Assembly (NCBI RefSeq): GCF_003334335.1
Contig: NZ_QOWQ01000088.1
Origin: Escherichia coli
GTDB taxonomy: Bacteria > Pseudomonadota > Gammaproteobacteria > Enterobacterales > Enterobacteriaceae
Length of the DNA stretch: 2,395 nt
Reading direction: 5' to 3' (one strand)
Shown here one piece after another: positions 53 through 2,380 of the stretch (position 1 is the stretch's first letter; each line of letters opens with the position of its first letter). Below the pieces are notes generated by a model. It searched no databases and was not told the DNA's origin. It was given only the letters and a program-made list of their open reading frames with translations. The translations under genes and the position numbers were made by a program.

Positions 53-1117
53 GTGCGGGTATTACTTCGACCTGTTCCGGTACCGGAACTTGGGCTGGTG
101 GTCCTTAAACCAGGCCGTGAATCCATGCAGGTATTCCATAACCCTCGAGTACTGGTGGAGCCGGAACCGAAAAGCATGCGTAATCTGCCGTCCGGAGTCG
201 TCCCTGCTGTTCGCCAGCCGCTGGCGGAGGATAAATCATTACTGCCATTTTTCAGCGATGATCGGGTGATTCGTGCTGCTGGTGGCGCTGGGGCACTGTC
301 TGACTGGCTGTTGCGTCATGTCAAATCCTGCCAGTGGCCTCATGGTGACTATCATCACAGTGAAATCGTCATACATCGTTACGGTACCGGCGCGATGGTG
401 TTGTGCTGGCACTGCGACAACCAGCTGCGTGACCAGACATCCGAATCACTCGGGCAACTTGCTCATCAAAACCTGTCAGCATGGATGATTGACGTCATCC
501 GTCACGCAATCAGCGGTACGCAGGAGAGGGAGTTATCGCTGGCCGAATTATCCTGGTGGGCGGTCTGCAATCAGGTGGCTGATGCGCTTCCGGAGTCTGT
601 ATTGCGTCGTTCACTGGGATTACCGGTGGAAAAAATCCGCTCCGTATACAGTGAGAGCGACATCGTACCGGGAGAACAGACAGCCACTAGCATACTGAAG
701 CAGCGCACAAAAAATATTGCGCTACCGCCTCACGTCCACCAGCACCAGCAACAGAACCCACCACAGGAAAAGACGGTGGTCAGCATTGCCGTTGATCCGG
801 AATCTCCGGCTCAGTATCTCCAGCGCCAGAAACCACAACGGGAAGAGATGCCTGTATACACGCGCTGGGTAAAAACGCAGAAATGCATGACGTGTGGCAA
901 TCAGGCAGATGATCCGCATCACATCATTGGTCATGGACTGGGAGGTATGGGAACAAAGGCTGACGATTTGTTTGTTATTCCGTTGTGCCGTAAATGCCAT
1001 AACGAACTACACGCCGGAGTAAAAGATTTTGAAGAGAAACACGGCAGTCAGCTGTTGTTGCTGATTCGTTTTTTAATGCACGCGAGAAATTCGGGTGTTC
1101 TGAAGTGGAAAGCATAA
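53..1117 (+). CDS. DUF968-like prophage protein with C-terminal HNH/His-Me-finger-like zinc-binding motif (putative nuclease)
   Basis: 1065-nt ORF (354 aa) with GTG start at 53, GGAGG at 45-49 and stop TAA at 1115-1117 directly abutting the rusA ATG. C-terminal residues 278-320 (nt 884-1012) read CMTCG...DDPHH...LCRKCHNELH, i.e. CxxC...HH...CxxCH-N-x2-H, the HNH/His-Me finger signature. Proteins of this architecture commonly sit just upstream of rusA in lambdoid prophages (family assignment is from memory, not a search). The start is uncertain: the SD-to-GTG spacing is short and in-frame ATGs occur at 125 and 176. Confidence 0.75.
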   Translation: MRVLLRPVPVPELGLVVLKPGRESMQVFHNPRVLVEPEPKSMRNLPSGVVPAVRQPLAEDKSLLPFFSDDRVIRAAGGAGALSDWLLRHVKSCQWPHGDYHHSEIVIHRYGTGAMVLCWHCDNQLRDQTSESLGQLAHQNLSAWMIDVIRHAISGTQERELSLAELSWWAVCNQVADALPESVLRRSLGLPVEKIRSVYSESDIVPGEQTATSILKQRTKNIALPPHVHQHQQQNPPQEKTVVSIAVDPESPAQYLQRQKPQREEMPVYTRWVKTQKCMTCGNQADDPHHIIGHGLGGMGTKADDLFVIPLCRKCHNELHAGVKDFEEKHGSQLLLLIRFLMHARNSGVLKWKA

Positions 1118-1486
1118 ATGACCGAGCGCATAGAATTTGTTTTGCCTTACCCGCCGACGGTGAACACTTACTGGCGACGCCGTGGCAGCACATATTTTGT
1201 ATCAAAAGCCGGGGAGCGTTATCGCCGGGCAGTGGCGCTTATTGTTCGCCAGCAGCGACTGAAATTAAGCCTGTCCGGAAGGCTGGTAATCAGGATTATT
1301 GCAGAGCCACCGGATAAGCGTCGTCGTGACCTGGACAATATTCTGAAAGCACCGCTGGATGCGCTGACGCACGCGGGGTTGTTAATGGACGATGAGCAGT
1401 TTGATGAAATCAATATTGTACGTGGCCAGCCAGTATCTGGTGGACGGCTGGAGATAAGAATTACAGAGGTGGGTGTGCATGAATAA
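1118..1486 (+). CDS. rusA: Crossover junction endodeoxyribonuclease RusA (Holliday junction resolvase)
   Basis: 122-aa ORF whose ATG immediately follows the upstream stop (TAAATG at 1115-1120). The translation carries recognisable RusA blocks: LPYPPTVN.YW near the N-terminus, PDKRRRDLDN (catalytic aspartate cluster), DALT.AGLL.DDEQ, and GGRLEIRITE near the C-terminus. The size matches the ~120-aa RusA family. Confidence 0.9.
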   Translation: MTERIEFVLPYPPTVNTYWRRRGSTYFVSKAGERYRRAVALIVRQQRLKLSLSGRLVIRIIAEPPDKRRRDLDNILKAPLDALTHAGLLMDDEQFDEINIVRGQPVSGGRLEIRITEVGVHE

Positions 1487-2168
1487 CCAGTATTTACAGT
1501 TTGTTCGTGAGCAACTCATGATTGCCACTGCAGATCTCAGTGGGTCGACAAAATGCCAGCTGGAAGCCTGGCAGGAAAATGCCCTGTTCGATACAGGGCG
1601 TTACAGACGCAAAAAAATTCGTTACCGCGATGAGGTAACCGGAAAAATGATCACGCGGGATAATCCCCCGATCCAGGGTAAACAATCACTGGCGAAAGGC
1701 TCATCAATTGCGCTGGTCAGTCCTGTTGAGTTTGCAACATCATCGTGGCGGCGTGCCGTTCTGGAACTGGAAGAACATCAGAAGGCGTGGTTGTTGTGGT
1801 GTTATGGCGGAAACATTTGCTGGGAGCATCAGATCGCGATAACGCAGTGGGTGTGGAGTGAATTTAAAACTCAGTCCGGCTCCAGAAAAATTGCAGTGAA
1901 AACGCTGGAGCGTGTGAAGAAGTTGATCTGGCTGGCGGCACAGGATGTCAGAGGATGGGTTACCGGGTGTGAGGTCTACCAGAGACAGGAGCTTGCCAGA
2001 CTGTGTGGAGTTAAGCCTGATAACTGGAGCCATAATTATGCGAACTACTGGCGTGAGATGTGCGATATTTTTAAGCGCCTCGATAGAGAATCCTTGATTT
2101 GCTCCGTGAAAATAAGAGCGCAACAAAAAGCGACCTTTTCACGACGAGATATTGCAAAAGTCAATTAA
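1479..2168 (+). CDS. Putative late-gene antitermination protein Q-like (assignment by synteny, not by recognised motif)
   Basis: Open frame with stop TAA at 2166-2168. I prefer the ATG at 1479 (MNNQYLQ..., 229 aa) over the GTG at 1473 because GAGGT at 1466-1470 gives an 8-nt spacer; this start overlaps the rusA stop by 8 nt. The gene sits immediately downstream of rusA and about 70 nt upstream of a strong intrinsic terminator, the canonical position of Q in lambdoid phages. I do not recognise a diagnostic Q motif and see no CxxC zinc-finger pairs, so the function is inferred from gene order. Confidence 0.5.
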   Translation: MNNQYLQFVREQLMIATADLSGSTKCQLEAWQENALFDTGRYRRKKIRYRDEVTGKMITRDNPPIQGKQSLAKGSSIALVSPVEFATSSWRRAVLELEEHQKAWLLWCYGGNICWEHQIAITQWVWSEFKTQSGSRKIAVKTLERVKKLIWLAAQDVRGWVTGCEVYQRQELARLCGVKPDNWSHNYANYWREMCDIFKRLDRESLICSVKIRAQQKATFSRRDIAKVN

Positions 2169-2190
2169 ATCGCGTATGTTTCGTATAAAT
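2152..2190 (+). promoter_or_regulatory. Candidate sigma70 late promoter (pR'-like), location approximate
   Basis: TTGCAA (2152-2157), a 17-nt spacer, then TATGTT (2175-2180), predicting a start near 2187. An alternative -10 TATAAA at 2184-2189 has no good -35 and could instead be a -10-like pause element in the initial transcribed region, as Q-dependent promoters use. Hexamer matches are moderate (4/6 each) and the call is inferential. Confidence 0.3.
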
Positions 2191-2233
2191 CTGATATTTT
2201 GCCGATTTTGTACGTGATGGCAAAGTAAGAAAA

Positions 2234-2257
2234 AACCACCGCCAGGTGGTTTTTTTT
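2234..2257 (+). terminator. Rho-independent terminator (tR'-like, possibly bidirectional)
   Basis: Stem AACCACC (2234-2240) pairs with GGTGGTT (2245-2251) around loop GCCA, followed by a run of eight T (2250-2257). An A-tract (2230-2235) precedes it, so the structure is symmetric and could terminate in both directions. Confidence 0.75.
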
Positions 2258-2380
2258 ATGTCCGAAAATCGCGTCAGTACAGTAAACGCGCTGGTGGCGG
2301 TGAATACCTGTCTTTCAGCTTGCTGGCTTTTTCGACAAGAGTTATTGGTGTGTCACGTTAACCGGAAAAGGGAAAAAGAC

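Follow-up and report, generated by a model that had tools for sequence, protein, structure and literature searches.

Chi octamers appear to be held at fixed codon positions in the DUF968 nuclease gene of lambdoid phages

Lambdoid phages that lack their own recombination functions are known to be rich in Chi, the octamer GCTGGTGG that acts as a hotspot for recombination by the host RecBCD enzyme. Bobay, Touchon and Rocha (PLoS Genet 2013; PMC3784561) found Chi to be over-represented in lambdoid phages without a recombinase or a RecBCD inhibitor, with the sites concentrated from the replication origin (ori) to the packaging site. Zheng, Casjens, Davidson, Amundsen and Smith (Genome Res 2025; PMC12315714) reported that lambdoids without a Rec module have many Chi sites, mostly on the top strand and clustered toward the right end, showed that one such phage, LLS, grows better with RecBCD, and argued that codon usage does not explain the Chi pattern. 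Here we analyze a 2,395-nt stretch of Escherichia coli DNA (assembly GCF_003334335.1, contig NZ_QOWQ01000088.1; referred to in full as the window), which is the nin/Q region in the right arm of a lambda-like prophage. The window holds three co-oriented genes, one of them a DUF968/YdfU-type His-Me (HNH) nuclease gene that carries most of its Chi sites. General Chi enrichment in such phages is already published; gene-level and codon-level conservation of Chi on both strands of DUF968 appears undescribed. The 2013 study is a genome-level statistic, with no DUF968/YdfU, no "orientation" or "conserved Chi," and no gene- or codon-level analysis (PMC3784561), and the 2025 study makes no mention of DUF968/YdfU, of position-specific codon conservation, or of a conserved bottom-strand site (PMC12315714).

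The relatives of the window resemble the LLS class (PMC12315714) in their lambdoid organization, their mainly top-strand Chi and the right-hand concentration of these sites, and the closest full-length relative, a lambdoid prophage beside potC in strain 7/2 (L001), has no recognizable RecBCD inhibitor or strand-annealing protein, although it does have a RecE-like exonuclease. In both cases, the proposal is that Chi is gained and lost with the shuffling of modules. LLS carries 20 top-strand Chi, whereas the close relatives of the window carry 3–9, mostly in one gene. Set against the profile of the class (typically at least eight top-strand and at most six bottom-strand Chi), the top/bottom counts were 8/2 in 42 kb for L001, which is a partial prophage, 9/5 in 36.7 kb for vB_EcoS-689R5, 5/2 in 45 kb for HannyBb and 3/1 in 44 kb for PPompW_132418. 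The locus also resembles the pattern of the 2013 study, in that the window lies in the interval from the replication genes to cos and combines a high local Chi density with a prophage-wide density close to that of the host. The chi+ mutations of red gam phage lambda (Lam 1974; Henderson and Weil 1975, cited in PMC12315714) involve the same octamer, the same orientation rule with respect to cos and the same expected benefit of RecBCD-dependent concatemers; they are, however, laboratory mutations in a naturally Chi-free phage, whereas the sites of the window are natural and appear to be evolutionarily maintained. The E. coli chromosome shares with the DUF968 sites the motif, the enzyme and a strong strand polarity, but the DUF968 gene has ∼8–11 times the mean chromosomal density and holds opposed orientations inside one gene. 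The Chi motif differs in other hosts, being GCTGGCGC in Pseudomonas and GNTGGTGG in Haemophilus.

An exact search confirmed the four Chi octamers that an initial annotation of the window had listed, three on the + strand and one on the − strand, and found no further copy (Chi 1–Chi 4; Table 1). Because of the gene order of L001, described below, the + strand of the window corresponds to the "top" strand of the lambda map. The DUF968 gene contains three of the sites, and the fourth falls just past the late terminator. All four match exactly the octamer used by enterobacterial RecBCD; only their orientation is determined, and their hotspot activity is predicted from the sequence. At 1.67 sites per kb, the window is about seven to eight times as dense as the E. 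coli mean, in keeping with the several-fold enrichment first claimed. With 1008 Chi in the 4.6 Mb of E. coli (PMC12315714), 0.52 sites would be expected per window (Poisson P(≥4) = 0.002), and dinucleotide-preserving shuffles of the window had a mean of 0.06 Chi, with four reached in 0/200 shuffles. For a genome scan, the count is nonetheless only suggestive because ∼3.9 windows of 2.4 kb with four or more Chi are expected by chance per 4.6-Mb genome at host density. By itself, the number of sites is thus only modestly unusual, suggestive but not decisive, and would not justify much interest. Shuffling synonymous codons within the DUF968 open reading frame (ORF) gave an expectation of 0.39 + strand and 0.13 − strand Chi (0.52 in total), compared with the two and one observed (P = 0.006), and the rusA and Q ORFs had essentially no coding capacity for Chi. 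Matches to seven of the eight bases numbered ten in the window, with 2.1 expected. The 3:1 strand bias within the window was not significant by itself.

Diverged homologues of the DUF968 gene provided the stronger evidence. Six phage genes at 44%–53% amino-acid identity (from SfV, Chris1, Kp4865-4, mEp390, Phi06_2987 and 716R3) have Chi sites, too, at positions that recur. We scanned one genome per species, which yielded 77 loci and, from these, 64 intact diverged DUF968 genes from Escherichia, Citrobacter, Klebsiella, Enterobacter, Kluyvera, Pantoea, Serratia, Rahnella, Hafnia, Yersinia and other genera; the homologous loci all belong to Enterobacterales. (A search of IMG/VR with the SfV DUF968 protein returned only loci that were 98%–100% identical, which served for the density profile only.) The 64 genes contained 113 top-strand and 46 bottom-strand Chi in 64.9 kb, and every gene had at least one top-strand site. 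Their density of 1.8 + and 0.7 − Chi per kb, compared with ∼0.5 top and ∼0.1 bottom in the 5-kb flanks, amounts to a peak of ∼8–11 times the host density and 3–6 times that of their own flanks. The flanks themselves were strongly polar, with top versus bottom counts of 262 versus 46 upstream and 214 versus 36 downstream. We looked in these flanks for a switch of Chi polarity across the DUF968 gene and found none, the top strand being dominant on both sides.

Within the gene, Chi recurs at four alignment columns, each with its own protein motif. A Cys-Trp-Trp column (TGC TGG TGG) held a full Chi in 58/65 genes; an Ala-Gly-Gly column (GCT GGT GGN), which is that of Chi 2 in the window, did so in 34/65 genes and in 23 of 42 cluster representatives; a Val-Leu-Val-Glu column did so in 14/65; and a bottom-strand Ala-Thr-Ser column (GCC ACC AGC) did so in 26/65. 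Codon choice at these columns departed sharply from that elsewhere. Ala was encoded by GCT in 70% of cases at the Chi column compared with 19% gene-wide, and Gly by GGT in 72% compared with 28%; Cys was TGC in 95%, compared with 71% at other conserved Cys columns; and on the bottom-strand site, Ser was AGC in 34 of 35 genes (25% gene-wide) and Thr was ACC in 84% (37% gene-wide). These footprints stop exactly at the edges of the octamer, with synonymous positions just outside it being random: the free third base of the second Gly, which adjoins Chi 2, was T, C, A and G in 11, 10, 7 and 6 genes, respectively.

We grouped the genes into 42 clusters with <80% nucleotide identity between them and took one representative of each. 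Away from the Chi codons, synonymous sites were close to saturation between representatives, with a fraction of identical codons of 0.325, compared with 0.271 for random; the Chi codons A76 and G77 reached 0.60 and 0.52 and the adjacent free codon G78 only 0.25. Since neighboring synonymous sites are near saturation, shared descent is an unlikely explanation for the Chi codons. The 42 representatives contained 75 top-strand and 28 bottom-strand Chi, against a synonymous-shuffle expectation of 33.4 ± 3.4 and 3.5 ± 1.7. The Chi octamer was found in 42/42 representatives, making it the most widely shared octamer of the gene, and its complement was the next most widespread once octamers overlapping the Cys-Trp-Trp Chi had been set aside. 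What we observe directly are the sites and their coding context, the enrichment at the level of the gene and the footprints at the level of codons; from these alignments, Chi appears to be held at fixed positions in the DUF968 family by synonymous codon choice under selection.

Among closer relatives, matching prophage DNA is found in 4600 of 5426 complete E. coli genomes, at no more than 95.5% identity to the window. We aligned to the window a close set of 81 loci (L001 and 80 IMG/VR loci with 92%–99% amino-acid identity). Only the DUF968–rusA part matches in the closest IMG/VR loci (97%–99%), which have a different Q allele, and across the IMG/VR loci, the DUF968–rusA block, the Q gene and the segment past the terminator behave as separate mosaic modules. 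Chi 1 was present in 64/81 close loci, Chi 2 in 39/81, Chi 3 in 18/81 and Chi 4 in 26 of the 39 that align there. The sites are therefore polymorphic but mostly present in close homologues, and the objection that they might be missing from them fails. The further objection that the surroundings might be equally dense also fails because the whole prophage of the relatives, at 0.09–0.38 Chi per kb overall, is not Chi-dense and the peak is local. In close homologues, the DUF968 gene always had ∼1.8 top-strand and ∼1.9 bottom-strand Chi per kb, whereas the surrounding 20 kb had mostly 0.1–0.6 per kb, with ∼1 per kb just past Q; upstream of the gene, Chi was almost wholly on the top strand.

Genes in the L001 prophage follow the lambdoid order: int-xis, then an early-left operon, cI/cro-like genes, the replication genes and a nin region, followed by Q, the lysis genes, terminase, and lambda-type genes for head and tail. 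The window is located ∼6–8 kb to the left of cos. Six of its eight top-strand Chi fall in the 8.2 kb from the start of DUF968 to the terminase gene, and none in the next 16 kb of head and tail genes; this concentration toward the right end, from ori to cos, agrees with the profiles of other loci. In HannyBb, five of the seven Chi lie within or just before DUF968. A search of the L001 early-left operon with PHROGs profiles found an 818-aa RecE-like exonuclease and no recognizable Gam, Abc2, RecT, Beta or Erf.

We consider it probable that the Chi sites of the window are part of a polar top-strand array that extends from ori to cos and is kept by lambdoid phages without a RecBCD inhibitor, the DUF968 gene being its densest carrier and the one in which the sites are best conserved, under selection. 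RecBCD would enter at the right cos end, or where a rightward replication arm is broken, and travel leftward. Each top-strand Chi would be recognized with a probability of roughly one third, upon which degradation of the 3′ strand would stop and RecA would be loaded, and the resulting recombination would yield concatemers for packaging. On these figures, the three top-strand sites in 2.4 kb might convert about two thirds to three quarters of incoming enzymes. Chi would be kept by synonymous choice wherever the Ala-Gly-Gly, Cys-Trp-Trp and Val-Leu-Val-Glu motifs allow it. How RecBCD acts on these sites, and that the phage benefits, we infer from established RecBCD biology and from the two earlier studies (PMC3784561; PMC12315714). 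The Chi pattern in DUF968 accords with the view, already in the literature, that phages of this kind recruit host RecBCD rather than block it.

The interpretation put forward in the initial annotation is supported, with some caveats. It had the strand bias act on RecBCD entering from the right; top-strand Chi does have that orientation (PMC12315714), but the bias in the window is not significant, and the family carries Chi in the DUF968 gene on both strands. It had also raised conservation through synonymous codon choice, which we found for Chi 2 in diverged homologues but not above background for the four window sites in close haplotypes. The Holliday-junction resolvase that it reported is indeed encoded, as RusA, and a functional link between this enzyme and the Chi sites is plausible, judging by adjacency alone: RusA could resolve the resulting junctions.

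Several observations weigh against a selected, right-end-directed array. The window is without a full Chi at three of the four family-wide positions; it retains only Chi 2 and is one base off at the others (Table 1), and carries instead Chi 1, Chi 3 and Chi 4, which are clade-specific. Chi 1 is specific to the clade of the window, its GLVV motif being found in only 3/65 diverged genes, and Chi 3 is clade-specific at its exact position, in a region full of indels, whereas the position of Chi 2 is conserved family-wide. By comparison of these alignments, the pattern looks like a turnover of sites between clades with the overall number retained, and Zheng et al. anticipate that Chi should "come and go" (PMC12315714). 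Among 66 close haplotypes, conservation of the four sites of the window did not exceed that of other octamers in these genes (percentiles of 0.57, 0.36, 0.23 and 0.57), and since conservation among close haplotypes equals background, the signal of selection is visible only in diverged homologues. There, the codon statistics are not corrected for phylogeny. Counted over whole genomes, Chi in close relatives is at or below the host level and not "abundant," as seen in PPompW_132418 and HannyBb. The content of Rec functions and inhibitors was read from the relative L001, the best complete-genome match, and would apply to the window's own prophage to the extent that the two agree. Finally, the conserved − strand Chi is not accounted for by RecBCD entry from the right end.

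We weighed several other explanations. Chance and protein composition might suffice, without selection, if motifs of the DUF968 protein (Trp-Trp, Ala-Gly-Gly, Leu-Val) simply happen to be compatible with Chi and a scan has picked out one of the few Chi-dense windows that any genome offers. At host density, some four windows of 2.4 kb would have four or more Chi in 4.6 Mb, the expected Chi density is doubled by the protein sequence alone, TGC (69% of Cys codons in these genes) is all that the Cys-Trp-Trp site requires, and the conservation of sites in close homologues equals background. Yet the 42 diverged genes exceed synonymous shuffling on both strands (75 top and 28 bottom versus 33 and 3.5), GCT GGT is used by 59% of representatives with the Ala-Gly-Gly motif compared with ∼5.5% expected, and the near-exclusive use of AGC for Ser at the − strand site is flanked by random synonymous positions. 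Synonymous shuffling and the identical-codon fractions together strongly disfavor chance, which we regard as very unlikely. An accumulation of the host type, in which Chi builds up in resident, often defective prophages as it does in the chromosome, through repair of collapsed forks, and in which the + bias reflects replichore orientation rather than the life cycle of the phage, is a caveat that Zheng et al. raise for prophage data sets (PMC12315714). The whole-prophage density of close relatives is indeed near the host value of 0.2 per kb (PMC3784561), and L001 lies at ∼1.27 Mb on the + strand of its record, beside potC, so that its top strand would be the leading strand if it is oriented as in K-12. 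Such accumulation is nevertheless unlikely to explain a DUF968 peak that stands so far above both host and flanks, or the presence of the same sites in the plaque-forming or inducible isolates HannyBb, SfV, mEp390 and Chris1. Moreover, the Chi-rich, non-integrating phages P1 and T5 show that selection in the lytic cycle is possible (PMC3784561), and replichore polarity does not predict the conserved − strand site.

Bottom-strand Chi occurs at 0.72 per kb in the DUF968 gene, compared with at most 0.16 per kb elsewhere within ±10 kb, and the conserved copy sits in the linker of the protein, to the right of the top-strand sites, with a footprint of exactly eight bases. Top-strand Chi in the 5′ half of the gene and bottom-strand Chi in the linker face outward from a point inside the gene, a geometry that would shield both ends of a break there or favor exchange to either side. 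The gene might on this basis be a dedicated bipolar cis-acting recombination hotspot, in which a break, possibly made by the encoded HNH nuclease, would expose oriented Chi on both sides within a few hundred bases. If true, such a hotspot would seed RecBCD/RecA-dependent replication or drive the exchange of flanking modules between lambdoid phages. HannyBb (L084, 35280–36329) has a mosaic DUF968 gene, with the first ∼730 nt window-like (∼88%) and the last 318 nt SfV-like (87%), and the junction (at about window position 809) falls at the variable linker, 50–100 nt to the right of two bottom-strand Chi; this is a single anecdote, explained equally well by homology ending at the variable linker. 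We think it unlikely that the gene is a bipolar hotspot of this kind. A recognition or binding site for the DUF968 nuclease or another phage protein, independent of orientation and of RecBCD, would also be consistent with an octamer conserved on both strands within one gene and with a − strand enrichment limited to that gene. But the conserved word is exactly the Chi of the host, top-strand Chi is enriched and strongly polar across the flanks, matching the published genome-wide pattern, and no other conserved nucleotide element was found between the sites; we consider a non-RecBCD role highly improbable. The polar array kept for RecBCD remains the reading that we prefer.

The coordinates of the Chi sites and of the genes and other features of the window are given in Table 1.

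Table 1. Chi sites, near-Chi octamers at family-wide positions, and other features of the 2,395-nt window
Feature	Position	Strand	Description
Chi 1	94..101	+	GG[G CTG GTG G]TC, Gly-Leu-Val-Val, aa 14–17 of the DUF968 ORF
Near-Chi ACTGGTGG	151..158	+	GTA CTG GTG G, Val-Leu-Val-Glu; full Chi in 14/65 diverged homologues
Chi 2	278..285	+	GCT GGT GG, Ala-Gly-Gly, aa 76–78 of the DUF968 ORF
Near-Chi CCTGGTGG	552..559	+	TCC TGG TGG, Ser-Trp-Trp; Ser TCC in place of Cys TGC; full Chi in 58/65 diverged homologues
Near-Chi GCTAGTGG	684..691	−	GCC ACT AGC, Ala-Thr-Ser; full − strand Chi in 26/65 diverged homologues and most close relatives
Chi 3	736..743	−	CCACCAGC on the + strand; GT[C CAC CAG C]AC, Val-His-Gln-His, aa 228–231
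Chi 4	2290..2297	+	intergenic; 32 nt past the hairpin after Q, ahead of the next small ORF
DUF968/YdfU-type His-Me (HNH) nuclease gene, 354 aa	53..1117	+	Pfam PF06147, E = 3.1e-63; phrog_96 HNH endonuclease, E = 1e-164; RefSeq annotation of relative
rusA, Holliday-junction resolvase	1118..1486	+	phrog_34, E = 5.5e-57, residues 1–119; annotation in relatives
Q, late-gene antiterminator	1473..2168	+	phrog_304, E = 4.8e-103; 77% nucleotide identity to phage 82 Q; no Chi
GC-rich hairpin flanked by A and T runs	2230..2258	.	downstream of Q; terminator-like on both strands

The PF06147 match spans aa 160–346 of the DUF968 protein, and the Cys and His residues of its metal finger (C278, C281, H289, H290, C312, H316 and H320) are invariant in our alignment (A1). 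DUF968 has been classed as a His-Me finger nuclease whose genomic neighbors include RusA and Q (PMC5714182), and its Gram-positive members have an Orf-like N-terminal domain (PMC4118853). The GTG start at position 53 is credible because the 24-residue N-terminal extension that it adds (MRVLLRPVPVPELGLVVLKPGRES, window 53–124) is conserved in the diverged homologues Chris1, Kp4865-4 and 716R3 and because phrog_96 covers the protein from residue 1. Some phage records annotate a later ATG at 125, which would put Chi 1 outside the gene. A His/Gln/Pro-rich linker (window ∼715–775; PPHVHQHQQQNPPQ) with indels among close homologues connects the N-terminal region to the DUF968/HNH domain; Chi 3 is placed in this indel-prone segment, and clade-specific bottom-strand Chi arise within it. 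Q has an annotated GTG start that lies within the end of rusA, giving a 14-nt overlap (1473–1486), and is followed by an in-frame ATG at 1480. The small ORF that follows Chi 4 is known from the annotation of L001, the 95.5% relative. Segment 2175–2259 is presumably a short leader ending in the terminator, as for a late-promoter (PR′-tR′-like) transcript, with no promoter confidently located; an Rfam scan of the window gave nothing near threshold, the Phe_leader model scoring 28 bits at 2175–2259 compared with a gathering score of 55.

Other features of the DUF968 loci were noted in passing. The Arg of a Pro-Leu-Cys-Arg motif (alignment column 340; window aa 313, 989–991) is encoded by AGA in 37/63 diverged genes, compared with 9% of Arg codons, and the octamer TGTGCAGA is common to 20 of the 42 cluster representatives; this is a strong synonymous constraint unrelated to Chi, and the codon in the window is CGT. 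The gene directly downstream of DUF968, usually Q or rusA, had only two top-strand Chi in 63 kb (64 loci, 1–2 kb past the DUF968 start), with 0.3–0.9 per kb in the surrounding bins. Four loci labeled as Collinsella (L171 and L222, metagenome-assembled genomes [MAGs]), Actinomycetes (L209, MAG) and Chryseobacterium sp. (L211) carry enterobacterial lambdoid DUF968 genes with up to 92% identity to the window, and their odd phylum labels are most likely the result of mis-binning or contamination. In the Stx2a phage WGPS2 (L248), SfV (L085) and three further loci (L086, L088 and L090), DUF968 likewise lies next to or near rusA and immediately precedes Q. WGPS2 has no exo, bet or gam gene, and the DUF968–RusA pair may be found preferentially in phages that lack a lambda-type Red/Gam module.

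Whether phages select Chi in order to use RecBCD, and are not merely its victims, is a matter of current argument (Zheng et al. 2025). The codon footprints in DUF968 provide direct, site-resolved evidence of selection keeping individual Chi sites in a phage gene across enterobacterial families, and they give exact targets for synonymous knock-outs. The conserved bottom-strand Chi could reflect a second way for RecBCD to enter or an exchange of modules driven by Chi.

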